Origin: a virus
Taxonomy: Duplodnaviria > Heunggongvirae > Uroviricota > Caudoviricetes
Strand: one strand, 5' to 3'
IMG/VR virus record: IMGVR_UViG_2671181040_000014
Length of the DNA: 31,123 nucleotides
The notes below the pieces were generated by a model. It did not search any database. It saw nothing but the letters and a program-made list of their open reading frames with translations, and was not told the origin of the DNA. This document shows, piece by piece, positions 1 to 31,105 of this stretch. Each line of letters opens with the position of its first letter. The stretch's first letter is position 1. A program made the position numbers and the translations under genes.

Positions 1-405
1 ATGGATCAGGTCGTTGTTTTTCAAAAGATGTTTGAGCAAGTGAGAAAAGAGCAAAACTTCTCCTGGTTTTATTCAGAATTAAAACATCACCGTATTGCAC
101 ATTACATTTATTATCTGGCTACGGATAACATCAGAATTATTACTCACGATGACACGGTTTTGTTATTAAGAGGAACCAGGAACCTGTTAAAAGTTAGTAC
201 GACCAAGAACCCTGCTAAAATAAAAGAGGCCGCATTGCTTCATATTTGCGGAAAATCTACATTTCGGGAATACTGTTCAACACTAGCAGGCGCGGGCGTT
301 TTCCGGTGGGTTACTGATGTTAATCATAACAAACGCAGTTACTACGCCATTGATAATACGCTTTTATATATTGAAGATGTAGAAAATAATAAACCATTAA
401 TCTAG
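1..405 (+). CDS. ycgX: small hypothetical protein of the chromosomal flank (YcgX-like)
   Basis: Complete 134-aa ORF starting at base 1 in AT-rich DNA. Its position beside an IraM-like ORF and an icd 3' fragment matches the icdC-iraM-ycgX neighbourhood of E. coli K-12 as I recall it. Identity is from memory, not a search. Confidence 0.45.
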   Translation: MDQVVVFQKMFEQVRKEQNFSWFYSELKHHRIAHYIYYLATDNIRIITHDDTVLLLRGTRNLLKVSTTKNPAKIKEAALLHICGKSTFREYCSTLAGAGVFRWVTDVNHNKRSYYAIDNTLLYIEDVENNKPLI

Positions 406-614
406 CTAAAGTTGGATGCTTAAGAAATGCTTCATAATTCAGTAAGGCATTAGCATAATGGGAATAAAAGTACAGAGACTATCCCTATGGATGATAAATA
501 CTGTCCTTTTATTGCTACCCATAAATAATCACCATGCCAATACTATCAAATTGATATTTGAAATGTGATCACTTGACTTTCTATACGTTATTTTATAACG
601 GTTAATATATTTAT

Positions 615-661
615 AAAAACAACGGGTGTGCCATACGCCCGTTTCAATACTTAACGCACAT
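615..661. repeat. ~47-bp hairpin-containing element (AACGGGTGT-loop-ACGCCCGTT), near-copy of 1477-1523
   Basis: Aligns with 1477-1523 with a few substitutions. Imperfect inverted repeat with one G-T wobble; a T-run follows on the minus strand. Confidence 0.5.
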
Positions 662-1100
662 GTGTTTTGGTTTAGTCATCATCCAGTTATATGTATTTTA
701 GCCAGGAACAGGTTAAACCTTTCCTATATAACTCAAAAATTGAAACCTTATTCTCATGTCATGCTTATATTCATTATTATCGTTATATAAAAAGGCAACC
801 ATAATGTTTAGCAAATTGGCACAAAGTAGCATAAAGGCTATGTTTTAATTACAGGATGTTCAGTCATTTGAATGTATAACATTATAGCTAAACAAATCTA
901 AAACGAAGTGAATAATTTATTGTTTTCACTAAATCTCATTTTGTTTAACATCCATTGAGATTCCTTGCTTTAAATTTTGTTTTATATAAGCAATCGTTTT
1001 AATTAATTTATTTTTTGAAGGGGTAATATACTCATATGCAAAATAAAGAAATGAACATCCAAATGAACTATATTAAATACCGTGGGATAAGACATAACAA

Positions 1101-1424
1101 ATGAAGTGGATAGTAATTGACACGATAATTCAACCTTCATGCGGCATATCTTTTTCAGCCATATGGGGTAATATGAAAATGATCATCTGGTATCAATCTA
1201 CTATATTTCTCCCTCCTGGCAGTATATTTACACCGGTTAAATCTGGAATTATCCTTAAAGATAAAGAATATCCTATTACTATTTATAACATCGCACCATT
1301 CAACAAGGATTTATGGAGTCTACTCAAAAGCAGTCAAGAGTGTCCTCCAGGAGAAAGCAAAATAACAAATAAATGTTTGCATAATAGTTGCATTATAAAA
1401 ATATGCCCATATGGGCTCAAGTAA
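1101..1424 (+). CDS. iraM: anti-adaptor IraM-like protein (RssB inhibitor family)
   Basis: 107-aa ORF (MKWIVIDT...). Length and position next to the icd 3' fragment match iraM (ycgW) of E. coli K-12 as recalled. Not verifiable here. Confidence 0.5.
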
Positions 1425-1476
1425 AGGGTTTTATATAAATATGCTCGATATGCTATTAATAATACCTACATAAATA

Positions 1477-1523
1477 AAACAACGGGCGTGTTATACGCCC
1501 GTTGCAATATTAAACACATGTAG
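1477..1523. terminator. hairpin element between the convergent iraM-like ORF and the icd fragment; probable shared terminator
   Basis: Perfect 9-bp stem AACGGGCGT / ACGCCCGTT with a 5-nt loop (1485-1507). On the minus strand it lies directly after the icd stop codon and is followed by a T-rich run. Confidence 0.5.
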
Positions 1524-1526
1524 TGA

Positions 1527-1691
1527 TTACATGTTCTTGATGATCGCATCACCAAATTCTGAACATTTCAGCAGTTTAGCGCCTTCCATCAGACGTTCGA
1601 AGTCATAGGTTACAGTCTTGGCGTTGATTGCGCCTTCCATACCTTTAACAATCAGGTCTGCGGCTTCAGTCCAGCCCATATGGCGTAACAT
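1527..1691 (-). pseudogene. icdC: 3' fragment of the isocitrate dehydrogenase gene (last 54 codons plus stop)
   Basis: Minus-strand translation [54 protein letters not shown] matches the Icd C-terminus as I recall it. Homology stops abruptly at 1691/1692. Phages integrating into icd leave such a fragment. Confidence 0.85.
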
Positions 1692-2509
1692 TAGATTTAG
1701 AAAATTATTATATCCAATTGAATTAAAACAATTTTATACTTAACGAACATCTAAACTTGTTTTTTTACCTTCACCATAACTCGCTGATTTTGTATAGTTT
1801 ACGTAGCGTTTTGATAACCACTTTATGGCAAAATGGAGGTTCGCTTGAAAACTTCTGTTCTTATCCAGAAATTAATGGAAATTGACAAAACTGTACTATT
1901 CGATGCGGACGTAGTGACCGGTGAGGAATGGTGGCCAACCCCGATTTCTCGTGTTTATCACAATCCGCCACATACTTATGTAGAATTTTAAACAGGTGAA
2001 CAATCTCAAAATGAATCTGACGAGCTAAGTGTTTATAGCGAATTACAAATTTGTGCACATCGAATGATGCAAATTAGAGATTTTGTGCAATCTAACGAGG
2101 GACTGAAACCTGAAAAAATTGTTTCGGAAATAAACATTCAAATTGAACGTATTAAAAAGTGATGGCTGAAGCAATTCTGAAACACTAATTCATATTCTAT
2201 GTTCTTCATACCAATGTGGATTTAACTCCCACCCACCCACCAACCCACCAACCATGATTGGGCGGCGCAAGAAACTAATATCAATTAAAACAGCAAGTTA
2301 TCAGTCTAAACAGAACACCAACGGGATGGAGGAGAGACAAAAAATATCCAATGAAACCGTAGCGCGTCAGCATTCAAAAGCGGGGTTTCTTATTTTTACT
2401 TCACCAGTAACAAATACACTGTATCATAACTACATAAAAATGATTGTTCTGACTCAGATGAATTTCTTACTCTTGTGGAATGTCACTTAATGTTATTTAT
2501 AGGTAAACA

Positions 2510-4399
2510 ATGAAATCCGAAACGCTAACCATCCAGCAAATTTTCCAAAATCAACGACAATATCGTGTTCCATTCTATCAACGTGCCTACGTATGGACGC
2601 AACGAAACCAATGGTCAGCTTTGTTGGAGGATATCTTCGAAAAAGCACAGAGCCGACTTTCGGGAACAAAACCAACCCCTCATTTCCTCGGCGCGGTGGT
2701 GCTGGAACCTCAACTCAAAAACAGCTTGTTAGGTGTAGATACCATACATATTATTGACGGCCAGCAACGTTTAACCACTCTTCAATATATTCTGGCATCC
2801 ATTCGATTATCATTGCGTGCTACAGGCCTTTCTGAACTGGAAGGGTTAGTATTGACTTGCTTGAAAAATACAAACGAAGCAACGATGAGAAATAAAAAGG
2901 TAGAATGCTTCAAACTGTGGCCAACTTTTCGAGATCAAACTCATTTTATTCAAAGTCTTAATGTTGATAATATTGACGATCTCCGTAATGTATTTTCTGA
3001 TAGCTTCACGCAACATGGTACGTTACGTAAACATTTCAACCACCCGCCGTCACTAGAGGCATTATGGTTTTTTACTGAAGCCTTTATAAAATGGATTAAA
3101 ATAGAAAACCACTCACCACAAGAAAATGCTGTAGCACTAATTGAGGCTGTCTTGACGGATCTGAAACTGGTAAGCATATTTCTCGAAGCTGAAGATGATG
3201 CCCAAATAATTTTTGAAACATTAAATGGGCGAGGAGCGGAACTTCATGCAACGGATCTTATTCGCAACTATATCTTTATGTGCGCTGAGCATGAAAATAT
3301 TAATGCTATTGAATTATATGAAAATGAGTGGAAGATCTTTGAAGATAAATACTGGTCGGAAAAGCAACGCCGTGGACGTATTAATAAACCACGCATGGAG
3401 TGGCTTGTACATGCGACATTGCAATCAGAAAGGCAGCGTGAAATTGATCTGTCTCGCCTTTACAATGAGTATCGTGATTATGTAAGTAAGGACTTGCCTT
3501 CACAACGAGCAGATCTGCAAGTAAAGCGCCTCAAACAATATGCATCACAATATAAAGAATTGGTTGGTGGTTTTGGCACAACCCCCATCTCACTCTTTGG
3601 ACATCGCATCGCAGCCTATGATGTGACGACACTCTATCCGCTTGCTTTGTTCATTTCGATAGCTAACATCGCCGATGATGAGAAAGCAGCCATGTATAAT
3701 GATCTTGTCTCCTACGTAGTACGAAGATCCGTATGTGGCCTGACGCCAAAGAATTACAACAATGTATTTATGAATGTATTGCGACACTTGTCTAAAACGG
3801 AAATTTCCAGTGTTGAGTTACGTAATATCCTCAATAGCTTAAATGGCGAAGCCTCACGTTGGCCTGGGGACTCAGAATTTCTCAACGCTTGCATCAATGC
3901 TCCACTTTATCCTGGCAGGCTCGACGCACCGAAAATGCGCTCAATGTTAACGGAACTTGAAAGAGAACTTTGTCGCCAAGTGAAGACAGAAAAGCCTGAT
4001 GTTCCAAATCTTTCTAATCTCGATATCGATCATCTTATGCCTCAAAGTTGGTATTCCTGTTGGCCTCTCGAAAATGGTCATATGGTGACAAATTCAGATG
4101 CTACGGTAATGAACCAAATTGTTCTGTCTGGAACCGATCTTACCCCTGAACAGCTACTGGTAAGGAAACGGCAACAAGCGATAGCTACGTTGGGAAATCT
4201 AACTTTGCTTAACCTTAGCGTAAACCGTTCCGTTCAGAATGCTGTATTTCTGAAAAAACGTGATGCTCTCATCGTCCACACCAATCTACGACTGAACATA
4301 CCACTTATACTTAAGGATAAATGGGATGAGAGTGAAATACAGGAGCGAGGTAAAAAGTTGGGGGAAATTGCATTGAAAGTATGGCCAAAATACGATTAA
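2510..4399 (+). CDS. DUF262 (ParB-like, DGQQR motif) / DUF1524 (His-Me finger) fusion protein; GmrSD-family type IV restriction endonuclease candidate
   Basis: 629-aa ORF. N-terminal YQRAYVW and IIDGQQRLTTL motifs typical of DUF262; C-terminal DIDHLMPQSW and GNLTLLNLSVNRS resemble the DUF1524 HNH-like nuclease. AT-rich, beside a truncated invertase, in the slot mcrA occupies in e14. Confidence 0.75.
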   Translation: MKSETLTIQQIFQNQRQYRVPFYQRAYVWTQRNQWSALLEDIFEKAQSRLSGTKPTPHFLGAVVLEPQLKNSLLGVDTIHIIDGQQRLTTLQYILASIRLSLRATGLSELEGLVLTCLKNTNEATMRNKKVECFKLWPTFRDQTHFIQSLNVDNIDDLRNVFSDSFTQHGTLRKHFNHPPSLEALWFFTEAFIKWIKIENHSPQENAVALIEAVLTDLKLVSIFLEAEDDAQIIFETLNGRGAELHATDLIRNYIFMCAEHENINAIELYENEWKIFEDKYWSEKQRRGRINKPRMEWLVHATLQSERQREIDLSRLYNEYRDYVSKDLPSQRADLQVKRLKQYASQYKELVGGFGTTPISLFGHRIAAYDVTTLYPLALFISIANIADDEKAAMYNDLVSYVVRRSVCGLTPKNYNNVFMNVLRHLSKTEISSVELRNILNSLNGEASRWPGDSEFLNACINAPLYPGRLDAPKMRSMLTELERELCRQVKTEKPDVPNLSNLDIDHLMPQSWYSCWPLENGHMVTNSDATVMNQIVLSGTDLTPEQLLVRKRQQAIATLGNLTLLNLSVNRSVQNAVFLKKRDALIVHTNLRLNIPLILKDKWDESEIQERGKKLGEIALKVWPKYD

Positions 4400-4421
4400 T
4401 GCAATTAATAAAATGATTATA

Positions 4422-4445
4422 GCGGCCTTACATTAGTAAGGCCGC
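4422..4445. terminator. 10-bp-stem hairpin (GCGGCCTTAC-ATTA-GTAAGGCCGC) between the convergent DUF262 gene and the invertase remnant
   Basis: Perfect inverted repeat 23 bp after the DUF262 stop. No clean T-run on the plus strand; a T-rich run follows on the minus strand. Confidence 0.4.
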
Positions 4446-4499
4446 AACTCACTATTAAATCCTTTAATTTGCATCAAGAACAGCACTGTCAGCCCTAGG

Positions 4500-4624
4500 C
4501 TCTCGGACTTTGTACCGCTTATCTTGTCTTCAAAAATCAGCTCGCATCCTGCACAGTTCAACGCATTACGTTGTAGATCGATTTTCTGGTCATTTGTTGA
4601 TACGCAAACATAGCCAATAAGCAT
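4500..4624 (-). pseudogene. pin: truncated serine invertase (Pin/Gin/Hin family), N-terminal ~41 codons only
   Basis: Minus-strand translation MLIGYVCVSTNDQKIDLQRNALNCAGCELIFEDKISGTKSE matches the conserved invertase N-terminus with the catalytic-serine motif YVRVST (here YVCVST). Similarity ends near 4500 where the AT-rich cargo begins. Confidence 0.8.
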
Positions 4625-4632
4625 GGTAGCTC

Positions 4633-4704
4633 CCTCTGACAAAAGCAGGAATGATGCCATTTTCTCGTTATTTCTGCATTTTCATAAACGTTGGTTTGGG
4701 AGAA
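4633..4704. repeat. inverted repeat arm (pin leader plus pix), reverse complement of 31052-31123
   Basis: Base-by-base comparison shows an exact reverse-complement match to the last 72 bases of the window. Confidence 0.9.
4679..4704. other. pix/hix/gix-like 26-bp recombination site (12-2-12; TTTTCATAAACG-TT-GGTTTGGGAGAA)
   Basis: Imperfect inverted half-sites of the TTNTNNAAAACC type around a central TT, directly upstream of the invertase remnant. Homology with the right-hand switch starts exactly at the central dinucleotide. Confidence 0.7.
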
Positions 4705-5040
4705 TTATCTCTGGCTGGCACTGCATCGGGTGTCATTGGTCTGAATGGGTATGTAACGATTCCGTTAATTATTTCAGGTTCCCGGAGAACACTGATTATT
4801 CAGTGGGGGCAGGCGAGATTTGGTGGGTCTGGTGGTGAAGATGCCGGATATCTTAATGATTTTCCTTTTGCCTTTCCGTCAGCATGTTATGGAATGATAG
4901 TTAGTCATGTGGGGCATACACCTTCAGGCGCAGGAATCCTGTCGGCTTCTGCAATTACATCAAATCAGTTCCGCGGTTTTTCAAGCATAGCGACTGCTGC
5001 AAATGCTGTATTAGGTCGTTATATCGCTATAGGGGGTTAA
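4693..5040 (+). pseudogene. tail-fibre variable C-terminal segment (Sv) without its constant N-terminal part
   Basis: Translation from LSLAGTASGVIG to the stop is identical to the C-terminus of the 29245-29883 tail fibre. Upstream codons come from the invertase leader, so the listed start at 4651 is an artefact of reading across the pix site. Confidence 0.65.
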
Positions 5041-5041
5041 T

Positions 5042-5479
5042 ATGTTTTATAGTCCATCATTAAACATTTTTGTGAATCCTGCGCTTAAGGATGATTACAT
5101 TAATGCAAATTCATGGCCAGATGATGCTCTGGCTGTCAGTGATGATGTTTATAATGAATTTGCAATCAATACGCCCCCATATGACAAAATTCGTGTTGCA
5201 GGAAAAAATGGATTACCCACATGGGCACTAATACCTCCACCATCGCATGAAGAACTTATTCAACAGGCAGAATCAGAAAGGCAATTATTGCTTAATCAGG
5301 CCAACGAATACATGAACAGTAAACAATGGCCCGGTAAAGCCGCTATTGGTCGTCTGAAAGACGAGGAACTGGCACTATATAATTTGTGGCTGGATTACCT
5401 GGACGCACTGGAACTGGTGGATACCTCCAGTGCTCCAGATATTGAATGGCCTACACCTCCGGTAACTCAGGCCAGCTAA
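5042..5479 (+). CDS. tfa: tail fibre assembly protein (Tfa family), duplicate of 29885-30322
   Basis: 145-aa ORF starting one base after the Sv stop; identical protein to 29885-30322. Confidence 0.75.
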   Translation: MFYSPSLNIFVNPALKDDYINANSWPDDALAVSDDVYNEFAINTPPYDKIRVAGKNGLPTWALIPPPSHEELIQQAESERQLLLNQANEYMNSKQWPGKAAIGRLKDEELALYNLWLDYLDALELVDTSSAPDIEWPTPPVTQAS

Positions 5480-5542
5480 TCTCAGGAGCCGTCGAAGTGT
5501 CGACGGCTTTTACTTCTTTTTTGTAGTCCATCCAGGCGGATA
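5451..5542 (-). pseudogene. 3' fragment of the alternative tail fibre assembly gene (tfa'), about 30 codons
   Basis: Minus-strand translation ends LSAWMDYKKEVKAVDTSTAPEISWPELPEV, identical to the C-terminus of the 30294-30689 ORF. Homology ends at 5542. Confidence 0.65.
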
Positions 5543-5724: not shown

Positions 5725-6720
5725 GTGACCGTGAGAGCACTACTGACCCCTGAAATTGCCCCGCGTATGGGGATCGTATTGTTCAGACCAGGTTCAGAGC
5801 TGATGCCCCTGTTTATGCAGGGGCGTGTCCTGCTGGAGCCTGAGCCGGAGCATTATTCATCTTTCGCCAGTGGTGCCGTTCCCGCGGCATCACAACCGCT
5901 GGCGGATGATCCTGTCGTTCGGGCCGTGTTCCGTAATGAGGCAGTGATTCGTCGTGCTGGTGGGGTGGAATGTCTTGAAAGCTGGTTACTTCGTGAAAAA
6001 GGCTGCCAGTGGCCTCATTCCGACTGGCACAGCGAGAACATGACCACAATGCGACACGCGCCGGGCGCAATCCGTCTGTGCTGGCACTGCGATAACCAGT
6101 TGCGCGATCAGTTCACGGAACGGCTGGAATCAATGGCAACGGATAACTGTGCCCGCTGGGTATTGTCTGTTGTGCGTCGGGATCTCGGTTTTGATGATAG
6201 TCACGTTGTGACAATGCCGGAACTGTGCTGGTGGCTGGTTCGTAATGACCTGGCGGATGCCTTACCGGAAAGTGCAGCCCGTAAGGCACTGAGATTACCG
6301 AAGCCTGTTGTGCCGTCTGTCACCCGGGAAAGTGACCTTGTGCCTTCGGTTCCTGCCACCAGCATCATCCAGGATAAGGCGAAAAAGGTGCTGGCGCTGA
6401 AAGTGGATCCGGAGTCGCCGGAGTCTTTTATGTTACGCCCAAAACGTCGCCGCTGGGCTAATGAAAAGTACACGCGCTGGGTTAAGACACAGCCGTGTGC
6501 ATGTTGTGGAAAGCTTGCTGATGATCCCCACCACCTGATAGGCGACGGTCAGGGGGGAATGGGTACAAAAGCGCATGACCTCTTTGTGTTGCCTTTGTGC
6601 AGAAAGCATCACGACGATCTGCATGCGGATACCGTGGCATTTGAAGAAAAGTATGGCTCCCAGTTGGAGCTGATATTTCGTTTTATCGATCGTGCGCTGG
6701 CAATTGGCGTGCTGGCGTAA
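5725..6720 (+). CDS. DUF968-like phage protein (nin-region type, YdfU-like) with a C-terminal Cys/His cluster
   Basis: 331-aa ORF; C-terminal CACCGK...DPHHL...LCRKHHDDLH motif. GTG start at 5725 is uncertain (alternatives 5731 and 5767). Sits directly upstream of the Q-like gene, as ydfU does beside quuQ in the Qin prophage as I recall it. Confidence 0.5.
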   Translation: MTVRALLTPEIAPRMGIVLFRPGSELMPLFMQGRVLLEPEPEHYSSFASGAVPAASQPLADDPVVRAVFRNEAVIRRAGGVECLESWLLREKGCQWPHSDWHSENMTTMRHAPGAIRLCWHCDNQLRDQFTERLESMATDNCARWVLSVVRRDLGFDDSHVVTMPELCWWLVRNDLADALPESAARKALRLPKPVVPSVTRESDLVPSVPATSIIQDKAKKVLALKVDPESPESFMLRPKRRRWANEKYTRWVKTQPCACCGKLADDPHHLIGDGQGGMGTKAHDLFVLPLCRKHHDDLHADTVAFEEKYGSQLELIFRFIDRALAIGVLA

Positions 6721-6733
6721 GTGGAGAACGAGC

Positions 6734-7486
6734 ATGAACCTTGAAGCCTTACCAAAATATTACTCCCCAAAATCTCCAAAATTGAGCGATGACGCACCGG
6801 CGACAGGCTCAGGTGGTTTAACGATTACGGATGTGATGGCTGCGCAGGGGATGGTGCAGTCGAAAGCACCGCTTGGGTTTGCCTTATTCCTGGCAAAAGT
6901 TGGTGTTCAGGATCCTCAGTTTGCGATTGAAGGTCTGCTCAATTACGCGATGGCACTGGATAACCCGACATTGAACAAATTGAGTGAAGAAACCCGGTTA
7001 CAGATCATCCCTTACCTTGTGAATTTTGCCTTTGCTGATTATTCCAGGTCTGCGGCAAGTAAGGCTCGCTGTGAGCATTGTGCTGGTACTGGATTTCATA
7101 ATGTATTGCGCGAAGTGGTGAAACACTCCAGAAGCGGGGAATCTGTTATCAAGGAAGAGTGGGTGAAGGAACTATGTCAGCATTGCCATGGTAAGGGAGA
7201 AGTCAGCACCGCGTGCAGAGGGTGTAAGGGTAAAGGTATTGTCCTGGATGAAAAAAGAACCCGGCTTCATGGCACGCCTGTTTATAAGATTTGTGGGCGT
7301 TGCAGTGGAAACCGGTTTAGCCGTTTACCAACCACACTGGCGCGGCTTCATGTCCAGAAGCTGGTACCAGACCTGACGGATTATCAGTGGTACAAAGGAT
7401 ATGCAGATGTCATTGATAAACTGGTTACAAAGTGCTGGCAGGAGGAAGCTTACGCTGAAGCACAATTGAGAAGGGTGACGAGATAA
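6734..7486 (+). CDS. late-gene antitermination protein Q-like, with four CxxCxGxG zinc-finger repeats
   Basis: 250-aa ORF from the ATG at 6734 (GGAG 7 nt upstream). Contains CEHCAGTG, CQHCHGKG, CRGCKGKG and CGRCSGNR. Followed by a strong intrinsic terminator and then the lysis genes, the lambdoid Q-pR'-tR' layout. Confidence 0.5.
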   Translation: MNLEALPKYYSPKSPKLSDDAPATGSGGLTITDVMAAQGMVQSKAPLGFALFLAKVGVQDPQFAIEGLLNYAMALDNPTLNKLSEETRLQIIPYLVNFAFADYSRSAASKARCEHCAGTGFHNVLREVVKHSRSGESVIKEEWVKELCQHCHGKGEVSTACRGCKGKGIVLDEKRTRLHGTPVYKICGRCSGNRFSRLPTTLARLHVQKLVPDLTDYQWYKGYADVIDKLVTKCWQEEAYAEAQLRRVTR

Positions 7487-7593
7487 GCGATTTTCGCCGA
7501 AGATAACGACATAATACTTGTATTTCTCAAAAAATATGGATAAGATTTTCTCAACGATGGGGCTTGTGTATCTATCGTTGAACAATTTTTACG

Positions 7594-7617
7594 ACCTCGC
7601 TATTGCGAGGTTTTTTT
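7594..7617 (+). terminator. rho-independent terminator (tR'-like) downstream of the Q-like gene
   Basis: Stem ACCTCGC / GCGAGGT with loop TATT, followed by seven T residues (7611-7617) and a second T-run. Confidence 0.65.
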
Positions 7618-7655
7618 ATGGTTTTTTTCTATTCAATCTACATCAAAATCAATGT

Positions 7656-7664
7656 GTTATAATG
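7656..7664 (+). promoter_or_regulatory. candidate extended -10 promoter element (TGtTATAAT) upstream of the 7701 ORF
   Basis: Perfect TATAAT at 7659-7664 with TG at 7656-7657, about 36 nt upstream of the 7701 start. No convincing -35 hexamer. Confidence 0.4.
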
Positions 7665-7700
7665 TTTTCTGTAAAACAACATTAAAAACAGGAGAACATT

Positions 7701-7970
7701 ATGAAACTGACCTCTATCCATCTTGAAATACTACGTCGAGTGAATGAATTGCAGCCAAAGGATTCTAGAATTCAGGCTGCATCATTACCTCATCTCTCAG
7801 CAAAAGAGGTTAACTTTGCTATTTCAGATCTTGCTGATATAGGTTTTATCGATGTTATACGAAGCAAATCTGCCGAAGGTGGATTGATTGCTAATGAGAT
7901 AACGTCAAAAGGTTTTGCTTTTTTGAGTGAGATTGGCGCTGAAAAAAATTCATCGATGAGCACTCATTGA
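7701..7970 (+). CDS. small hypothetical protein (89 aa), possible winged-helix DNA-binding fold; first gene of an AT-rich moron
   Basis: Strong RBS (AGGAGAACATTATG). AT-rich codon usage unlike the flanking phage genes. Helix-rich pattern (LEILRRVNEL ... FAISDLADIGFID) only suggests a wHTH fold. Confidence 0.55.
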   Translation: MKLTSIHLEILRRVNELQPKDSRIQAASLPHLSAKEVNFAISDLADIGFIDVIRSKSAEGGLIANEITSKGFAFLSEIGAEKNSSMSTH

Positions 7971-7984
7971 TTTCTGCTTCAATC

Positions 7985-8002
7985 GGCTGCCAATTGGCAG
8001 CC
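7985..8002. promoter_or_regulatory. perfect 18-bp palindrome GGCTGCCAATTGGCAGCC (possible operator or hairpin)
   Basis: Exact dyad symmetry with no T-run after it, lying between the two moron genes. Confidence 0.45.
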
Positions 8003-8167
8003 TAAACTGTAAAGTGAATTTAAAATCGCCTACAATTGATGCTTAAATTTTGTTCTGTATCATCTGCAGGTTTAGGGATATCACAGTAGCTTTCTGACAA
8101 GAAGAGTTCTTTTCTTCTACCAATGAAGTGGTTATGTTAACCTGCGCTAAATCGAGACTGGTGCGGA

Positions 8168-8974
8168 GTGGAATCGAAAGTGTCATATTTTTACAGAAGC
8201 AAGAATATTTCAGGTGTTTCTATAAATGAAGATAGCTTGATTAGCTTAAGCACGGCAATTGTCGAACGCTGCGTTAAAATGAATGAGCAAGCTCAAAAGG
8301 AAAGTAGGGAAGTTTGTGCTCAATGTGTTTTTTTTATTTTGTTCGATGGTAAGGGGTATAAAGTTGATTCTATCGGTGAGCTTGTGAAATACTTTAGACA
8401 GGCCACTAGGATTGATCAAATAATTTTTACTATTGAAACTTATCAAAGTCGACAGTCTAACAGGATGAATGGATCTTGGATGGAGCTACGAATTGATGAG
8501 AGGAATTCAAATAGCAGCACAATGATTGTAGCATCGGAAGATAATGAGTGGGTTGACTCGTTATGGATTACGATTCAGGATTTACTTAACAAGTGCAAAA
8601 ATAAATTTAGATTTTTTAGAACAGCTTGGACTATGTTAAGTATCCAGATTTCAGGTGTGACAGTTGGCTTTTTGCTTAGCTTATGGACAGCCTCAAAACT
8701 GGCGCCAAAACTATCAATCGATGGTGCATTTGCTTTATCATTTATTTGTATCTTTATTTTGTTTTCGAACTTATGGAGCTTTGCTATTCCATTAATAATT
8801 AAGCTTATCGACTTTTTGTTTCCTAGTGTTAAGTTTGTTATTAATGGTAAAAATTACTTTCACTGGAGTGTCCAGGCTATAATTGGAGCGATTGCCAGTG
8901 CGGTTATATTGTATTTTATTAGCTCCATGTTGCTTTTTGCATTAGAAATGTTAAATAGCATCATTAAGAAATAG
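8168..8974 (+). CDS. hypothetical membrane protein: soluble N-terminal domain (~150 aa) plus three C-terminal hydrophobic helices; second gene of the moron
   Basis: 268-aa ORF in AT-rich DNA. Hydrophobic segments around residues 155-175, 187-215 and 235-262. Start codon uncertain (GTG at 8168 has a weak RBS; first in-frame ATG is at 8279). Confidence 0.5.
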   Translation: MESKVSYFYRSKNISGVSINEDSLISLSTAIVERCVKMNEQAQKESREVCAQCVFFILFDGKGYKVDSIGELVKYFRQATRIDQIIFTIETYQSRQSNRMNGSWMELRIDERNSNSSTMIVASEDNEWVDSLWITIQDLLNKCKNKFRFFRTAWTMLSIQISGVTVGFLLSLWTASKLAPKLSIDGAFALSFICIFILFSNLWSFAIPLIIKLIDFLFPSVKFVINGKNYFHWSVQAIIGAIASAVILYFISSMLLFALEMLNSIIKK

Positions 8975-9082
8975 TTAATGAATTAGTTATAATTACATCA
9001 ATTCTATGGCTGCCAAATGGTGGCCTTTTTTATTCCTCTCATTTCTATTTCTGAGAGGACTCACTGCAATAAGAGGTGGCTA

Positions 9083-12269: not shown

Positions 12270-13999
12270 GCCGGAAATCTTACCCCAACGTAAATGCTGC
12301 CAATCAGTATGCCCGTGATGTCGTGCGCGGAAAGATTGTGGCCTGCCAGTTTGTGATTCAGGCCTGCCAGCGGCATCTTGATGACCTGATGGCGGAAAAA
12401 AGTAAGTCGTTTCGTTACCGCTTCGACAAGGACCTGGCTGAACGGGCCGCTAAATTTATTCAGCTGTTGCCGCACACCAAGGGTGAGTGGGCATTTAAGA
12501 GGATGCCCATCACGCTGGAGCTGTGGCAGCTCTTTGTGATCTGCTGCGCGTTTGGCTGGGTCAATAAAGGCTCCCGGCTGCGCCGCTTCCGTGAGGTGTA
12601 TACCGAAATCCCCCGTAAGAACGGCAAATCGGCAATCTCTGCCGGTGTCGCCCTGTATTGTTTTGCCTGTGATAACGAGTTCGGCGCGGAAGTGTATTCC
12701 GGTGCCACGACGGAGAAACAGGCATGGGAAGTCTTTCGTCCGGCAAGACTGATGTGTAAACGCACACCCATGCTGACGGAAGCGTTCGGGATTGAGGTTA
12801 ACGCCTCAAACATGAACCGTCCGGAGGATGGTGCGCGTTTTGAACCGCTGATCGGTAACCCCGGTGATGGTTCATCACCCCACTGTGCGGTGGTGGATGA
12901 ATATCACGAGCACGCCACCGATGCGCTTTACACCACGATGCTTACCGGGATGGGGGCGCGACGTCAGCCACTGATGTGGGCCATTACTACTGCCGGGTAC
13001 AACATTGAGGGGCCGTGCTACGACAAGCGGCGGGAAGTTATCGAGATGCTCAACGGGTCGGTACCCAACGATGAACTGTTCGGGATCATCTATACCGTTG
13101 ACGAAGGCGATGACTGGACCGACCCGCAGGTGCTGGAAAAAGCCAATCCAAATATTGGCGTGTCGGTTTATCGCGAATTTTTGTTAAGTCAGCAGCAGCG
13201 TGCGAAAAATAACGCCCGTCTGGCAAACGTCTTTAAAACAAAACACCTCAATATCTGGGTGTCGGCGCGTTCGGCGTATTTCAATCTGGTGAGCTGGCAG
13301 AGCTGCGAGGATAAATCACTGACCCTTGAGCAGTTCGAGGGGCAGCCGTGCATTCTGGCCTTTGACCTGGCGCGTAAGCTGGATATGAACAGTATGGCGC
13401 GACTTTATACCCGCGAGATTGACGGTAAAACGCATTACTACAGTGTGGCCCCGCGTTTCTGGGTACCGTATGACACGGTGTACAGCGTCGAGAAAAATGA
13501 AGATCGACGGACAGCCGAACGCTTTCAGAAATGGGTGGAAATGGGCGTTCTGACCGTTACCGATGGTGCGGAGGTGGATTATCGCTACATCCTCGAGGAG
13601 GCCAAAGCGGCGAACAAAATCAGCCCGGTCAGTGAGTCACCCATCGACCCCTTCGGGGCGACCGGGTTGTCACATGACCTTGCTGATGAAGACCTGAACC
13701 CCATCACTATCATTCAGAACTACACCAACATGTCCGACCCGATGAAAGAGCTGGAAGCGGCAATTGAATCGGGGCGCTTTCATCATGATGGCAATCCCAT
13801 CATGACCTGGTGTATCGGCAACGTGGTCGGCAAAACCATTCCGGGTAACGATGATGTGGTGAAGCCCGTCAAAGAGCAGGCGGAAAACAAAATCGATGGT
13901 GCAGTTGCGCTGATTATGGCGGTTGGCAGAGCCATGCTGTACGAGAAAGAAGACACGCTGTCTGACCACATTGAGTCCTATGGGATCCGCTCGCTTTAA
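12266..13999 (+). CDS. terminase large subunit
   Basis: 577 aa; Walker A-like [11 protein letters not shown]; acidic nuclease-type C-terminal half. Sits between TerS and the portal. Confidence 0.9.
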
Positions 14000-14010
14000 C
14001 TGAGGTAATT

Positions 14011-14193
14011 ATGATCATGCTGATTCTCGCGCCTCTGGTGGGCGTGCTGGGGGCGCTTTTGCTGGCGTATGGTGCCTGGCTGATTTATCCCCCGGCGGGG
14101 TTTGTTGTTGCCGGGGCGTTGTGCCTGTTCTGGTCGTGGCTGGTGGCGCGATATCTCGACCGTACACAGTCGTCTGTCGGCGGAGGTAAATAG
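14011..14193 (+). CDS. small hydrophobic protein (60 aa, two predicted helices)
   Basis: ATG at 14011 with GAGGT RBS; fills the gap between TerL and the portal exactly. Confidence 0.4.
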
Positions 14194-15434
14194 TGTTCTT
14201 TTCGGGATTATTTCAACGAAAAAGTGACGCACCGGTGACCACGCCAGCAGAGCTGGCGGATGCTATCGGGTTGTCCTACGACACCTATACCGGAAAGCAG
14301 ATCAGCAGCCAGCGGGCCATGCGACTGACGGCGGTTTTTTCCTGTGTCAGGGTGCTGGCGGAGTCGGTCGGGATGTTGCCCTGCAACCTGTATCACCTGA
14401 ACGGCAGCCTGAAGCAGAGAGCCACTGGCGAACGTCTGCATAAGCTGATCTCCACGCATCCCAATGGCTATATGACGCCGCAGGAGTTCTGGGAGCTGGT
14501 GGTCACCTGTCTGTGTCTGCGGGGAAACTTTTACGCCTACAAAGTGAAAGCATTTGGCGAAGTGGCTGAACTGCTGCCCGTCGATCCCGGCTGTGTGGTA
14601 CCGAAGCTTAACAGTAGCTGGGAGCCGGTCTATCAGGTCACATTCCCGGATGGCTCCACGGATGTACTGAGCCAGGAGGATATCTGGCATGTGCGCACGC
14701 TGACGCTGGACGGACTGGTGGGGCTGAATCCCATCGCCTATGCCCGCGAGGCAATATCGCTGGCGGCAGCGACCGAAGAGCACGGGGCCAGACTGTTCAG
14801 CAATGGCGCGGTGACGTCGGGTGTGTTGCGTACAGAGCAGACGCTGTCAGATCAGGCTTATGAGCGCCTGAAGAAAGATTTTGAGGAGCGTCACACCGGG
14901 CTTGGCAATGCTCACCGCCCGATGATCCTTGAGATGGGGCTGGACTGGAAGTCGATGGCGCTGAACGCCGAGGACAGCCAGTTCCTGGAAACCCGCAAGT
15001 TTCAGCTTGAAGAAATCTGTCGTCTGTTCCGGGTGCCGTTGCACATGGTGCAGAACACCGATCGCGCCACCTTCAACAATATCGAAGAGCTGGGGCTGGG
15101 ATTTATCAACTATTCACTGGTGCCGTATCTGACCCGCATCGAACAGCGGATCAACACCGGACTGGTACGAAAAAGTAAGCAGGGCGTTTATTACGCCAAA
15201 TTTAACGCCGGGGCGTTACTGCGCGGGGATATGAAGTCCCGTTTTGAAGCCTACGCCACCGGGATCAACTGGGGAATTTACTCTCCCAATGACTGCCGCG
15301 ACCTGGAAGATATGAATCCGCGTCCCGGTGGTGATGTCTATCTCACACCGATGAACATGACCACGAAGCCCTCCGATGGCAGTAAAGCCGGTAAGCAGAA
15401 GGATAACGCCAATGCAGACGAAACAACGTCTTGA
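14193..15434 (+). CDS. portal protein (HK97-family type)
   Basis: 413-aa ORF with a GTG start after GGAGGT; position after TerL and before the prohead protease; sequence character typical of HK97-type portals. Confidence 0.85.
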   Translation: MFFSGLFQRKSDAPVTTPAELADAIGLSYDTYTGKQISSQRAMRLTAVFSCVRVLAESVGMLPCNLYHLNGSLKQRATGERLHKLISTHPNGYMTPQEFWELVVTCLCLRGNFYAYKVKAFGEVAELLPVDPGCVVPKLNSSWEPVYQVTFPDGSTDVLSQEDIWHVRTLTLDGLVGLNPIAYAREAISLAAATEEHGARLFSNGAVTSGVLRTEQTLSDQAYERLKKDFEERHTGLGNAHRPMILEMGLDWKSMALNAEDSQFLETRKFQLEEICRLFRVPLHMVQNTDRATFNNIEELGLGFINYSLVPYLTRIEQRINTGLVRKSKQGVYYAKFNAGALLRGDMKSRFEAYATGINWGIYSPNDCRDLEDMNPRPGGDVYLTPMNMTTKPSDGSKAGKQKDNANADETTS

Positions 15435-27621: not shown

Positions 27622-28666
27622 ATTTCAGCGCCCGACGCTGGCTGAAAATATCAGTATGCTCCGTAACGATTTATTCGCCAGGCTGGACGTCAGCGACACG
27701 CTCCGGCGCATGGATGAAGACGTGCGGGCAAAGGTGTATGCGGCGGCGCTGCATACGGTTTACGGGTACATCGATTATCTGGCAATGAACATGCTGCCTG
27801 ACCTGTGCGATGAGTCCTGGCTGGCGCGACATGCTGCGATGAAACGGTGTCCGCGCAAGGGGGCCACGGCTGCCAGCGGGTATATGCGCTGGGAAGGTGT
27901 CAGCGATGGCCTGAAGGTGACCGCCGGGAGTGTTATTCAGCGCGATGACCTGGTTCAGTATACTGCAACTGCCGATGCAACCAGCTCCGGTGGTGTCCTG
28001 CGCGTGCCGATCGCCTGCTCAAATGCAGGCGCGGTCGGTAACGCTGACGACGGTACGGCATTAATCCTGGTCACGCCGGTGAATGGTCTGCCGTCTTCCG
28101 GTGTGGCTGACACCCTGACAGGCGGATTTGATACTGAAGAGCTGGAAACGTGGCGCGCCCGCGTCATTGAGCGGTATTACTGGACGCCGCAGGGCGGGGC
28201 TGACGGGGACTATGTCGTATGGGCTAAAGAAGTGCCCGGCATTACCCGCGCATGGACATACCGTCACTGGATGGGAACGGGAACTGTCGGTGTGATGATT
28301 GCCAGCAGTGACCTGATTAATCCCATTCCGGAAGAATCAACGGAAACGGCGGCAAGACAACATATCGGGCCACTGGCCCCGGTGGCAGGCTCTGATTTGT
28401 ATGTGTTCAGGCCGGTGGCACATACGGTGGATTTTCATATCCGCGTGACGCCGGACACACCGGAAATACGGGCTGCCATCACCGCGGAGTTGCGTTCGTT
28501 CCTGCTGCGTGATGGTTATCCGCAGGGAGAACTGAAGGTATCGCGTATCAGTGAGGCGATTTCCGGTGCGAACGGGGAATACAGCCATCAGTTGCTTGCA
28601 CCGGCAGACAATATCTCCATTGCAAAAAATGAACTGGCGGTACTGGGGACGATTTCATGGACGTGA
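27608..28666 (+). CDS. baseplate J-like protein (Mu gp47)
   Basis: 352-aa ORF, size and position typical for baseplate J; upstream of the YmfQ-like gene. Confidence 0.8.
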
Positions 28667-29241
28667 CAAACGATGATTACATCCGTCTGTTGTCGGCACT
28701 GTTGCCCCCCGGTCCGGCGTGGTCAGCCAGCGATCCGGCGATTGCCGGTGCGGCACCGTCATTAACCCGCGTTCATCAGCGTGCGGATGCCCTGATGCGG
28801 GAGCTGGATCCGCGCACCACCACTGAACTGATAAACCGCTGGGAGCGTCTGTGCGGTCTGCCGGATGAATGTATTCCCGCAGGGACACAGACCCTTCGCC
28901 AGCGTCAGCAACGGCTGGATGCGAAGGTTAACCTGGCGGGTGGCATCAACGAGGATTTTTATCTTGCACAGCTTGCTGCCCTGGGCAGACCAGATGCCGC
29001 CATCACGCGATACGACAAAAGCACGTTCACCTGCTCATCGGCCTGTACTGACGCTGTGAACGCGCCTGAATGGCGGTATTACTGGCAGGTCAACATGCCA
29101 GCCGCCACCAACACCACCTGGATGACATGTGGCGATCCCTGTGATTCCGCACTGCGTATCTGGGGCGACACAGTTGTCGAATGTGTGCTTAACAAACTCT
29201 GCCCGTCGCATACCTACGTAATTTTTAAATATCCGGAGTAA
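28657..29241 (+). CDS. tail protein (Mu gp48 / e14 YmfQ-like)
   Basis: 194-aa ORF directly upstream of the tail-fibre gene, as in e14. Confidence 0.65.
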
Positions 29242-29244
29242 TCC

Positions 29245-29883
29245 ATGCATCGTATAGACACGAAAACCGCGCAGAAGGATAAGTTCGGCGCGGGTAAGAA
29301 CGGTTTTACCCGTGGTAACCCCCAGACCGGCACGCCTGCCACCGATCTGGATGATGACTACTTTGACATGTTGCAGGAAGAGCTCTGCAGCGTGGTGGAG
29401 GCATCCGGTGCCAGCCTGGAGAAGGGGCGGCATGACCAGCTGCTTACCGCGCTTCGTGCGCTGCTGTTAAGTCGCAAAAATCCGTTTGGCGATATCAAAT
29501 CGGACGGCACGGTGAAAACGGCTCTTCAAAACCTTGGTTTGGGAGAATTATCTCTGGCTGGCACTGCATCGGGTGTCATTGGTCTGAATGGGTATGTAAC
29601 GATTCCGTTAATTATTTCAGGTTCCCGGAGAACACTGATTATTCAGTGGGGGCAGGCGAGATTTGGTGGGTCTGGTGGTGAAGATGCCGGATATCTTAAT
29701 GATTTTCCTTTTGCCTTTCCGTCAGCATGTTATGGAATGATAGTTAGTCATGTGGGGCATACACCTTCAGGCGCAGGAATCCTGTCGGCTTCTGCAATTA
29801 CATCAAATCAGTTCCGCGGTTTTTCAAGCATAGCGACTGCTGCAAATGCTGTATTAGGTCGTTATATCGCTATAGGGGGTTAA
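29245..29883 (+). CDS. stf: tail fibre protein: constant N-terminal part fused across pixL to the Sv variable part
   Basis: 212 aa with GGAG RBS. N-terminus MHRIDTKTAQKDKFGAGKNGFTRGNPQTGTPATDLDDDYFDMLQEEL matches e14 StfP-type fibres as recalled. pixL lies inside the ORF at codons ~93-101. Confidence 0.8.
   Translation: MHRIDTKTAQKDKFGAGKNGFTRGNPQTGTPATDLDDDYFDMLQEELCSVVEASGASLEKGRHDQLLTALRALLLSRKNPFGDIKSDGTVKTALQNLGLGELSLAGTASGVIGLNGYVTIPLIISGSRRTLIIQWGQARFGGSGGEDAGYLNDFPFAFPSACYGMIVSHVGHTPSGAGILSASAITSNQFRGFSSIATAANAVLGRYIAIGG
29522..29547. other. pixL-like 26-bp recombination site (CTCTTCAAAACC-TT-GGTTTGGGAGAA) inside the tail-fibre gene
   Basis: 12-2-12 site with half-sites related to the hix/gix family; the 852-bp repeat homology begins at its central TT. 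Confidence 0.7.
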
Positions 29884-30385
29884 TATGTTTTATAGTCCAT
29901 CATTAAACATTTTTGTGAATCCTGCGCTTAAGGATGATTACATTAATGCAAATTCATGGCCAGATGATGCTCTGGCTGTCAGTGATGATGTTTATAATGA
30001 ATTTGCAATCAATACGCCCCCATATGACAAAATTCGTGTTGCAGGAAAAAATGGATTACCCACATGGGCACTAATACCTCCACCATCGCATGAAGAACTT
30101 ATTCAACAGGCAGAATCAGAAAGGCAATTATTGCTTAATCAGGCCAACGAATACATGAACAGTAAACAATGGCCCGGTAAAGCCGCTATTGGTCGTCTGA
30201 AAGACGAGGAACTGGCACTATATAATTTGTGGCTGGATTACCTGGACGCACTGGAACTGGTGGATACCTCCAGTGCTCCAGATATTGAATGGCCTACACC
30301 TCCGGTAACTCAGGCCAGCTAATCTCAGGAGCCGTCGAAGTGTCGACGGCTTTTACTTCTTTTTTGTAGTCCATCCAGGCGGATA
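29534..30385. repeat. 852-bp direct repeat, copy 2, matching 4691-5542
   Basis: See copy 1. Confidence 0.9.
29885..30322 (+). CDS. tfa: tail fibre assembly protein (Tfa family)
   Basis: 145-aa ORF starting 2 nt after the fibre stop; C-terminus converges tail to tail with the inverted tfa'. Confidence 0.8.
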   Translation: MFYSPSLNIFVNPALKDDYINANSWPDDALAVSDDVYNEFAINTPPYDKIRVAGKNGLPTWALIPPPSHEELIQQAESERQLLLNQANEYMNSKQWPGKAAIGRLKDEELALYNLWLDYLDALELVDTSSAPDIEWPTPPVTQAS

Positions 30386-30697: not shown

Positions 30698-31105
30698 CTA
30701 TACACCGATTGCTACCCAAAAACAGGACCTTTCATATTTGACAATTTCTCCCTGAGATATACCGCCAACAATTATATAGAACTGTGATTTGGTGATATCA
30801 GAACAGTTCGCAATGCCCATTGCAGATATACCAGCCAACGACGTTGTATGTGGCACAGCCAACAGCGCAAGTGAACGATTTGGGAATGTTACCGGGTAAG
30901 TCACCGTATAGTTTGATGCTCCACTGACAATACCCCACTGAATAATCAGACCTGAAGGGAGTTTTTGAAAACCCGTTGATGAAAGTGAACTGGCAAACGC
31001 CGCCATATCCGGAATTTGGTTTTGCCCGTTACCTACATTCCGTTTTGCCGCTTCTCCCAAACCAACGTTTATGAAAATGCAGAAATAACGAGAAAATGGC
31101 ATCAT
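30698..31105 (-). CDS. alternative tail-fibre C-terminal segment (Sv') in the inverted cassette; the apparent N-terminus crosses pixR
   Basis: Minus-strand ORF whose first 18 codons (MMPFSRYFCIFINVGLGE) lie beyond pixR in the invertase leader, so it is a cassette awaiting inversion rather than an independent gene. C-terminus resembles Sv. Confidence 0.6.
   Translation of the reverse strand: MMPFSRYFCIFINVGLGEAAKRNVGNGQNQIPDMAAFASSLSSTGFQKLPSGLIIQWGIVSGASNYTVTYPVTFPNRSLALLAVPHTTSLAGISAMGIANCSDITKSQFYIIVGGISQGEIVKYERSCFWVAIGV
31052..31077. other. pixR-like 26-bp recombination site (TTCTCCCAAACC-AA-CGTTTATGAAAA), inverted relative to pixL
   Basis: Reverse complement of the 4679-4704 site; shares the GGTTTGGGAGAA half-site with pixL in inverted orientation. 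Confidence 0.7.

Follow-up and report, generated by a model that had tools for sequence, protein, structure and literature searches.

In the e14 prophage of Escherichia coli K-12, the DNA between the invertase gene and the icd end of the prophage carries the restriction gene mcrA. What fills this slot in a related prophage, and how did it get there? We asked this of a 31,123-nucleotide stretch of viral DNA (IMG/VR record IMGVR_UViG_2671181040_000014; hereafter, the window). A preliminary description had proposed that an uncharacterized candidate nuclease was inserted at this site and that most of the invertase gene was lost in the process. We are confident of another answer: positions 2510-4399 are the prophage-borne type IV restriction gene gmrSD, first found in E. 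coli CT596, and the gene is cargo that arrived as a pre-formed module.

The slot between icdC' and pin

The slot and its boundaries contain the following features:

1527-1691, minus strand: icdC' remnant, the displaced native 3' end of icd, which marks where the prophage meets host DNA at attR
2510-4399, plus strand: gmrSD, intact, encoding a single-chain type IV modification-dependent restriction endonuclease of 629 amino acids
4422-4445, no strand assigned: hairpin between the convergent gmrSD and pin stump
4481-4624, minus strand: 5' part of the serine invertase gene pin, cut off after about codon 48
4691-4704, no strand assigned: crossover (ix) site of the invertible tail-fibre segment, TTGGTTTGGGAGAA

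We assigned the DNA to an e14/SfII-type prophage in icd from the icdC' remnant and its synteny with K-12, from the annotation of the same prophage in strain A8, and from identity to fragments of K-12 e14 (97% at 12863-14600 and 27879-29547). The window contains an icd 3' remnant by iraM, a Mu-type tail and baseplate, ymfQ, and an adjacent invertible tail-fibre segment. The remnant matches the end of the Pfam profile Iso_dh (positions 301-348 of 348) and of the NCBIfam model (363-416 of 416). Positions 1-1701 are K-12-like (ycgX, iraM, and icdC up to the e14 boundary); homology to other icd prophages ends at 1696 instead of 1701. Homology to K-12 picks up again at 4489-4704, with pinE codons 1-45 and the crossover site. 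Thus, 1702-4488 (2,787 bp) replaces 1,584 bp of K-12, that is, the rest of pinE and mcrA.

Several observations in the preliminary description hold at this level. gmrSD lies between icdC' and the pin stump, as mcrA does in e14, and it is on the opposite strand from mcrA: pinE, mcrA, and icdC are all co-directional in K-12, whereas gmrSD is opposite in orientation to both the pin stump and icdC'. The slot is also AT-rich, with 39.4% GC in 1702-4488 versus 52.0% in the prophage body. McrA and GmrSD are both type IV enzymes with an HNH-type nuclease, and both genes sit at the attR end of a prophage in icd, but McrA targets 5-methylcytosine (C5mCGG), and pin is left intact beside mcrA. We considered whether the two proteins might be homologous and rejected this, as a local alignment of the two scores just 39, which is not significant, and there is no Pfam overlap. 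We found no methyltransferase ORF in 1702-4700 or in the annotation of this locus in strain A8. A scan of 1400-5000 against Rfam gave just two sub-threshold matches, to tpke11 (1452-1522; 26 bits versus a gathering score of 43) and to an archaeal snoRNA, which we took to be chance.

An allele of the prototype GmrSD

The preliminary description had suggested DUF262 and DUF1524 domains with catalytic residues, and domain searches and a residue check bear this out. The N-terminal part of the protein (residues 8-256) matches GmrSD_N (PF03235, DUF262) over the full length of the profile (1-199; E = 1.8e-33), and the C-terminal part (residues 451-619) matches GmrSD_C (PF07510, DUF1524) over positions 1-137 of 138 (E = 4.9e-20). 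The DGQQR motif was confirmed residue by residue (G84, Q85, Q86, and R87; the translation reads IIDGQQRL). The (D/E)HxxP motif of the His-Me finger and its downstream Asn are present as well, and every catalytic residue defined by mutagenesis is kept. E271, E273, D507, H508, P511, and N522 were all found, and the last four are needed for the activity of Eco94GmrSD. Both domains are in one ORF, which has no cognate methyltransferase. A full-length model for this protein already exists in PADLOC: mREase_IV (PDLC03655) matches positions 1-629 of 629 with 1,519 bits. NCBIfam did not contain a family for the protein, and a sequence search of the PDB gave a single weak match, to the N-terminal domain of 9jfl (E = 2.6e-07).

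Comparison with characterized proteins shows that the nuclease, far from being a new candidate, is the CT596 prototype of GmrSD with one substitution (H362L). EcoCT596GmrSD (GmrS/GmrD) is identical at 628 of 629 residues, has the same length and the same motifs, and was found to be a single chain upon re-sequencing (GenBank AF493796, as cited in PMC4437046). Its neighbourhood is like the window's, with tail-fibre assembly genes and an invertase fragment; that a tail-fibre-assembly gene and an invertase lie beside gmrS/gmrD in CT596 was already in the literature (PMC4619093). Strain A8 encodes, at the same icd locus, a protein with 100% identity to that of CT596. Eco94GmrSD, from E. coli STEC_94C (WP_000834395), which has been purified and mutagenized, is identical at 626 of 629 residues, including D507, H508, and N522; the window has R316, L362, and Q611 where Eco94GmrSD has H, H, and L. 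The gene for Eco94GmrSD directly follows the tail-fibre genes of an SfII-like prophage.

Two other relatives are less similar. First, UTI89 GmrSD (UTI89_C2960, the "UT enzyme") also has 629 amino acids and is 92.85% identical. It is encoded in the same module of gmrSD, hairpin, truncated pin, and tail-fibre genes, but its prophage is at ssrA rather than at icd. It is insensitive to the phage inhibitor IPI*, acts on another range of phages, and is inactive in vitro, so small sequence changes can matter for GmrSD. Second, BrxU, from a BREX island on an Escherichia fergusonii plasmid, shares the DUF262 and DUF1524 domains, the DGQQR and DHxxP motifs, and the NTP-dependent cleavage of modified DNA. 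However, it is only distantly related in sequence (9jfl was the sole PDB match), is promiscuous for modified cytosines, and lies inside a BREX locus.

Could the window's enzyme have a specificity unlike that of its close relatives, perhaps sensing phosphorothioates as SspE does or accepting many modifications as BrxU does? PADLOC did report weaker matches to its Orf5, HEC-06, and SspE models. However, these were partial and reached 258 bits at most, far below the full-length match to mREase_IV; ssp, dnd, and BREX genes are not adjacent to gmrSD; and the protein is 99.8% identical to an enzyme whose substrate has been measured. We therefore consider another specificity extremely improbable.

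The gene might also have no defence function in this strain, either because it is decaying and H362L has inactivated it or because it is silenced. The pin stump and the small pseudogene next to it are both broken, the UTI89 enzyme is inactive in vitro, and the CT596 gene is toxic when cloned at high copy number, which makes silencing conceivable. On the other hand, the 629-codon frame is complete and retains every catalytic residue, and residue 362 is in the connector between the domains, outside the motifs. Furthermore, the reading frame is intact in all five alleles that we checked, and dN/dS is 0.12-0.20 in comparisons with four other alleles. Loss of function is very unlikely.

Predicted activity

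The proposed mechanism comes from published work on proteins that differ from the window's by one to three residues and on the homologue BrxU; for the H362L allele, we infer it from those. The N-terminal domain, with a ParB/Srx fold and the DGQQR motif, would bind and hydrolyse NTP, and the C-terminal domain would act as a His-Me finger (HNH-type) nuclease via D507, H508, and N522. The expected substrate is DNA with glucosyl-5-hydroxymethylcytosine (glc-5hmC) or 5-hydroxymethylcytosine (5hmC), so that incoming T-even genomes would be destroyed unless the phage injects the inhibitor IPI*. Unmodified host DNA would be spared, and a partner methylase would be unnecessary. Cleavage of glc-5hmC and 5hmC DNA and restriction of T-even phages are published for the near-identical proteins (PMC4437046, PMC12373910), so the phage test that the preliminary description proposed has already been reported for proteins one to three residues away. 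In particular, cleavage by GmrSD is stimulated by ATP (PMC4437046), T4 lacking ip1 is restricted about 10^6-fold, and the D507A, H508A, and N522A mutants are inactive (PMC4437046). The CT596 enzyme is inhibited specifically by Ip1 (PMC12373910), and a structure of BrxU and a dimer-to-monomer NTP cycle have been reported (PMC8565348).

gmrSD arrived as part of a module

We next turn to how the gene reached this locus. Upstream of gmrSD, between icdC' and the start codon, lie three further features:

1845-2156, plus strand: pseudogene of a small hypothetical protein, with an in-frame stop after residues YVEF
2236-2344, plus strand: decayed copy of the 3' end of ssrA (tmRNA), comprising its last 16 nt and about 92 nt of downstream sequence
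2400-2427, plus strand: promoter-like site upstream of gmrSD (TTCACC, 16 nt, TATCAT; 9 of 12 matches in a consensus scan)

The alternative that the preliminary description favoured is a local event: in this lineage, a GmrSD-like gene was inserted into the e14 prophage at icd, where it took the place of mcrA and removed the 3' part of pin. The gene does fill exactly the interval that is replaced relative to K-12, from pinE codon 46 to icdC. Furthermore, positions 1702-2244 are found in the icd context only, and the segment 1702-2288, which was in 59 genomes, was always beside icdC'. This segment includes the pseudogene, which we recognized with the intact 113-amino-acid ORF of strain 8GC (WP_224271434.1; 87% identity over 104 amino acids in tblastn, with a stop in frame).

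However, the junction of gmrSD, hairpin, and truncated pin is not specific to icd. Among 5,426 complete E. coli genomes, gmrSD is present in only 304, so it is not a conserved prophage core gene, and 303 of the 304 carriers have the junction. Just 54-59 or so of those 303 have the module at icd. We aligned five loci, representing four chromosomal contexts: icd, ssrA (UTI89), the pao region (14EC001 and ARS-C101), and a lambdoid prophage (strain 164). All five have the same pin breakpoint and the same hairpin. The copies outside icd have 90-96% nucleotide identity, and the homology among the contexts starts at 2245-2299 and ends at 4704. That an identical junction and breakpoint occur in several contexts implies that the truncation of pin is ancestral to the module and did not happen at the window's locus; this effectively refutes the local reading. 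In addition, no trace of mcrA is left in the window, and there is a probable vestige of an ssrA attachment site upstream of gmrSD. A local origin is accordingly very unlikely.

The left edge of the portable module is marked by that vestige. Positions 2236-2344 are 73.6% identical over 110 nt to the 3' end and flank of ssrA from UTI89 (E = 7.6e-13), and copies that are 93-95% identical lie at the equivalent position in strains 8GC, EC190486, and 24AR0142. Judging from this similarity, it is probably what is left of an ssrA-type attachment site.

We conclude that gmrSD reached the window's locus ready-made. The module extends from the ssrA vestige through the upstream region, gmrSD, the hairpin, and the truncated pin to the crossover site of the tail-fibre segment, and related prophages at several attachment sites carry it too. 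Judging from the shared boundaries, it was most likely exchanged by recombination, through the prophage end at one boundary and through the conserved DNA of pin and the tail-fibre genes at the other. In the window, gmrSD is cargo at the attR-proximal end of an icd-integrated e14/SfII-type prophage, where K-12 e14 has mcrA.

In 50,697 records of isolated phages, megablast found no match to 1702-4488, and tblastn found only three matches, in unrelated phages and each at about 24% identity. Without a close match among isolated phages, the gene is known only from prophages in this collection.

Other cargo in the same slot

The preliminary description had also suggested that the attR-proximal end is a hotspot at which anti-phage nucleases are swapped in, and a small sample of strains supports this. 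Beside icdC', other strains have McrA, McrBC-like genes, or a type II restriction-modification (R-M) system, which together with GmrSD makes three families of type IV and one R-M system of type II at this place. On the other hand, the same slot can hold cargo unrelated to defence (sitABCD or ompT). Overall, the observations in the preliminary description were confirmed, and its interpretation was partly supported.

A broader model is possible, although we are doubtful of it: the interval from the invertase and tail-fibre switch to the attachment site of e14/SfII-type prophages may be an exchange cassette, bounded by conserved pin and crossover DNA on one side and by a vestigial ssrA-type att on the other. 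Whole modules would move between prophages at different chromosomal sites, three unrelated type IV families (McrA, McrBC-like, and GmrSD) would alternate there, and the tail-fibre switch would need invertases in trans. The last point would follow for gmrSD prophages: as the pin that accompanies gmrSD is always dead, they would depend on the invertases of other prophages.

Earlier publications already cover the enzyme, what it does, the inhibitor that phages encode against it, and its place by prophage tail-fibre and invertase genes. What we add is, first, that about 1% of complete E. coli genomes have the prototype GmrSD allele in the mcrA-equivalent slot of an e14-type prophage at icd; second, that gmrSD of this clade is essentially always joined to the same truncated pin; and third, that the contents of the icdC' slot vary among type IV genes of three families, a type II R-M system, and cargo unrelated to defence. 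Surveying the slot systematically could make a modest contribution to maps of cargo hotspots in prophages.

The pin stump, the hairpin, and the crossover site

The stump of pin runs from 4624 down to about 4481 and comprises 45-48 codons. The preliminary description was right that the gene is truncated, but its estimate that the loss begins beyond codon 41 or so is slightly early: the match to pin is almost perfect up to codon 41, and some similarity can still be detected as far as codon 45-48. The stump aligns to residues 1-48 only of PinE (about 184 amino acids) and to positions 2-54 of 145 of the Pfam Resolvase profile, so it does not have the complete catalytic domain and C-terminal helix-turn-helix of a Pin/Gin/Hin invertase. 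It also has a substitution (R7C) in the catalytic YxRxS motif. The annotation of strain A8 lists it as a recombinase pseudogene that is truncated at its C-terminal end.

The hairpin, whose coordinates had been given exactly in the preliminary description, has a perfect 10-bp stem and a 4-nt loop. It starts 22 nt past the stop codon of gmrSD, and the ORF of the pin stump terminates inside its loop. The fold energies are -20.8 and -26.8 kcal/mol (z-scores of -5.1 and -6.0 versus shuffled sequences), and it is kept at all five aligned loci, with single changes at one position of the stem. It is likely a terminator, and a moderately U-rich tail follows it on the minus strand. It has no run of T's, for which reason the scan for terminators missed it. 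We also considered whether the hairpin is common to K-12, which we rejected, as the homology to K-12 stops at 4489. The promoter-like stretch upstream of gmrSD is likewise conserved at all five loci. In this region, promoter and terminator scans gave counts no higher than in shuffled sequence, so we base no regulatory claim on them.

From position 5543 onward, the window looks misassembled or truly rearranged: the junction at 5542/5543 was absent from all 5,426 complete genomes searched. The crossover site, which matches the inverted repeat of the e14 P segment (TTGGTTTGGGAGAAGG, as quoted in PMC12529663), is part of an exact inverted repeat (4633-4704 versus 31052-31123) and is also located at the start of another repeat (4681-5542 versus 29525-30385).

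A gmrSD gene in place of mcrA and most of pinE

The window begins with E. coli chromosomal DNA, which holds the first three of the features below; the fourth lies within 1702-4488:

1-405, + strand: ycgX (DUF1398)
1101-1424, + strand: iraM
1527-1691, - strand: the displaced 3' end of icd (icdC'), which matches the end of the Iso_dh profile and NCBIfam positions 363-416 of 416
1845-2156, + strand: pseudogene of a 113-amino-acid hypothetical protein, with an in-frame stop, between icdC' and an ssrA-like copy

According to BLAST, window 1-1701 is 95.6% identical to E. coli K-12 MG1655, up to the annotated right boundary of the cryptic prophage e14. Homology to MG1655 is absent across 1702-4488 and returns at 4489-4704, which corresponds to the first 45 codons of the invertase gene pinE and the upstream crossover site (90.3% identity). 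The 2,787 bp at 1702-4488 stand in place of 1,584 bp of K-12 sequence, which contain the remainder of pinE, then mcrA and the spacer that precedes icdC. The only long open reading frame in 1702-4488 lies at 2510-4399 on the + strand and encodes 629 amino acids; we will call it gmrSD. In K-12, pinE, mcrA, and icdC are co-directional, whereas gmrSD is antiparallel to both the truncated invertase gene (the pin stump) and icdC'. The GC content of 1702-4488 is 39.4%, versus 52.0% for the prophage body.

The preliminary description of this locus, as a DUF262/DUF1524 gene in mcrA's position with most of the invertase gene lost, was confirmed with one adjustment: pin is truncated, but not at codon ~41, as similarity is detectable to codon 45-48. 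The hairpin that it placed at 4422-4445 is exactly there, with a perfect 10-bp stem and a 4-nt loop (z-scores versus shuffled sequence of -5.1 on the + strand and -6.0 on the - strand).

The product of the 1845-2156 pseudogene is 87% identical over 104 amino acids to an intact protein from strain 8GC (WP_224271434.1) and has no match in Pfam. Also, a 48-nt repeat (85% identity) lies on both sides of iraM, at 616-663 and 1476-1521. The second copy overlaps a sub-threshold match to the Rfam family tpke11 (1452-1522, - strand; 26.4 bits, versus a gathering score of 43; E = 0.011). We regard this as a probable repetitive or terminator-like element rather than a small RNA.

Identity and activity of the GmrSD protein

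The expected domains are both present: the protein matches the entire Pfam profiles of GmrSD_N (formerly DUF262; 1.8e-33) and GmrSD_C (formerly DUF1524; 4.9e-20). The protein is not new to catalogues of type IV enzymes: PADLOC's mREase_IV model (PDLC03655, length 629) matches it from end to end, with 1519 bits. The exact sequence is in the databases as WP_053903124.1 or CTY76553.1.

We compared the protein to three E. coli enzymes whose sequences are given in Supplementary Fig. S1 of He et al. 2015 (PMC4437046). It is identical at 628 of 629 residues to the family's founding member, EcoCT596GmrSD, with H362L as the sole difference; at 626 of 629 residues to Eco94GmrSD, which has been purified and mutagenized; and at 92.85% of residues to the enzyme from UTI89. 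The complete genome of strain A8 has an allele that is 100% identical to CT596 GmrSD at the same icd locus. A residue-by-residue comparison found the DGQQR motif, E271, E273, D507, H508, P511, and N522 in the window's protein. The gene is an already known GmrSD, characterized by experiment, in a type of location that is also known; the preliminary observation was correct, and its interpretation was half right.

The DUF262 domain adopts a ParB/Srx fold and acts as an NTPase, and the DUF1524 domain belongs to the His-Me/HNH nucleases (PMC4619093). Eco94GmrSD cleaves DNA containing 5hmC or glucosyl-5hmC, with stimulation by ATP, and cleavage is abolished in the D507A, H508A, and N522A mutants (PMC4437046). 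Its restriction of T4 without ip1 is about a million-fold; wild-type T4 escapes via the injected inhibitor IPI* (PMC4437046). When GmrSD-CT596 was tested again in 2025, inhibition was specific to Ip1, with none by Ip2 or Ip3 (PMC12373910). The structure of the homologue BrxU is an intertwined dimer, which comes apart when nucleotide binds, and cleavage needs cycles of dissociation and re-association (PMC8565348). By analogy, the window's H362L allele would be expected to behave as the published enzymes do.

In each of the five genomic contexts that we inspected, the open reading frame is intact, and dN/dS between the window's allele and four others is 0.12-0.20, which indicates purifying selection. 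The icd-lineage allele has 10 extra nucleotides, TTAATGTTAT, immediately before the ribosome-binding region of gmrSD (window 2483-2492, a position derived from alignment A2, columns 334-343). In the alignment, this insertion is missing from the copies at ssrA, at the pao region, and in strain 164.

Origin of the truncated invertase gene

Among 5,426 complete E. coli genomes, 304 have gmrSD, in every case on the chromosome. Identity was at least 99% in 56 genomes, 95-99% in 29, and 90-95% in 218; we inspected one or two loci per band. In UTI89, gmrSD lies within an SfII-like prophage that is integrated at ssrA; in 14EC001 and ARS-C101, within a prophage adjoining paoD and a truncated LysR-family gene; and in strain 164, it adjoins a lambdoid tail-fiber region. 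At every inspected locus, the next genes after gmrSD are a recombinase gene truncated at its C-terminal end and tail-fiber genes. The location of gmrS/gmrD near a tail-fiber-assembly gene and an invertase was already on record for CT596 (PMC4619093), as was the position just after the tail-fiber genes in SfII-like prophages (PMC4437046).

It had been proposed that pin was lost by an insertion at the icd locus. This does not hold: the same breakpoint is found in the other contexts. Between the stop codon of gmrSD and the start of pin, the spacer, the hairpin, and the end of similarity to pinE are the same in all five aligned contexts, and homology among the contexts is limited to the region from window 2245-2299 through 4704. 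A 301-nt probe containing the 3' end of gmrSD, the hairpin, and the pin stump was at least 80% covered in 303 genomes, which is effectively all of the genomes with gmrSD. Therefore, the junction formed once and has since been passed on whole between prophages that use different attachment sites.

Within the icd lineage, codon 7 of the pin stump (window 4604-4606) has an R7C change in the catalytic YxRxS motif, while the copies at the pao site and in strain 164 have arginine. This change is consistent with decay of pin after its truncation.

At the left edge of the shared module, 2236-2344 (165-275 nt upstream of the gmrSD start codon) is a diverged copy of ssrA's final 16 nt and the ~92 nt downstream of ssrA, with 73.6% identity over 110 nt to the corresponding region of UTI89 (E = 7.6e-13). 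Less decayed copies (93-95% identity) are found at the same position in the icd prophages of 8GC and EC190486, before a type II restriction-modification pair instead of gmrSD, and in 24AR0142, beside an integrase-ParA island. We infer that 2236-2344 may be what is left of an ancient attachment site of the ssrA type, carried along with the cargo; if so, it may mark the cargo's boundary.

Genes adjacent to icdC'

In a spread sample of 60 genomes, 14 (about a quarter) have a prophage at icd, as judged by an annotated icd 3' remnant within the match. To survey the cargo beside icdC', we considered the window and twelve inspected genomes, which are a small and non-random sample.

Genes next to icdC' in icd prophages
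McrA: K-12
GmrSD: the window and A8; ~54-59 genomes
McrBC-like pair (AAA ATPase or McrB, with McrC): WCHEC025985, UID2309220004, SCEC020001, ML35
Type II endonuclease, C5 methyltransferase, and GIY-YIG protein: 8GC, EC190486
sitABCD: EcST1193, SCAID WND2, KKo003
Acetyltransferase, ompT, and hydrolase: O157:H7 F3113

The pinE-mcrA-icdC arrangement is common to 329 genomes, many of which are K-12 derivatives. At the same position, prophages at the pao site have gmrSD with a type ISP restriction-modification enzyme, or pinE with a GIY-YIG protein, or pinE with Avs2. In this small and non-random sample, the position holds varied cargo, with many restriction nucleases but other genes as well. The earlier suggestion of a swap-in hotspot for anti-phage nucleases has qualitative support from the several restriction families that adjoin icdC'; in other strains, sitABCD or ompT is found there.

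A second possible cargo (moron) position is the AT-rich region at 7500-9000 (GC content 0.33-0.38), between the Q antiterminator and the holin genes:

6692-7486: Q antiterminator
7701-7970: 89-amino-acid open reading frame with a sub-threshold match to DUF2513
8168-8974: 268-amino-acid open reading frame without a Pfam family

Assembly beyond 5542 and orientation of the tail-fiber segment

From 5543 on, the prophage body is in the reverse orientation relative to all complete genomes with the same prophage, and the window as a whole is collinear with none of the 5,426 complete E. coli genomes. At 5542/5543, the 3' fragment of a tail-fiber-assembly gene meets the 3' part of a KilA-N gene in a blunt junction (microhomology of 1 nt), which was found in none of these genomes. 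An 862-bp direct repeat links 4681-5542 with 29525-30385, and the final 72 nt of the window (31052-31123) are the exact reverse complement of 4633-4704. The window is from contig CYFW01000002.1 of a draft assembly (GCA_001283465.1), and the two end at nearly the same point; an independent Logan assembly of the same run, ERR175727, breaks within the pin stump, 133 nt past gmrSD. The simplest reading, and a likely one, is a misjoin around the invertible segment; alternatively, a subpopulation of the culture may have undergone a true rearrangement. Whether misjoin or rearrangement, 1-5542 is unaffected: it is 99.96% identical to and collinear with strain A8.

Two chicken isolates, 22-245 (NZ_AP038810.1; 5,073,334 bp) and 22-250 (NZ_AP038812.1; 5,073,329 bp), have the locus at the same coordinates. 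Despite the truncated pin, their tail-fiber segments (equivalent to window 4705-5542) are in opposite orientations, which implies either that an invertase was supplied in trans or that a culture was mixed. The action of PinQ/PinR on the e14 segment is a precedent for inversion in trans (PMC12529663).
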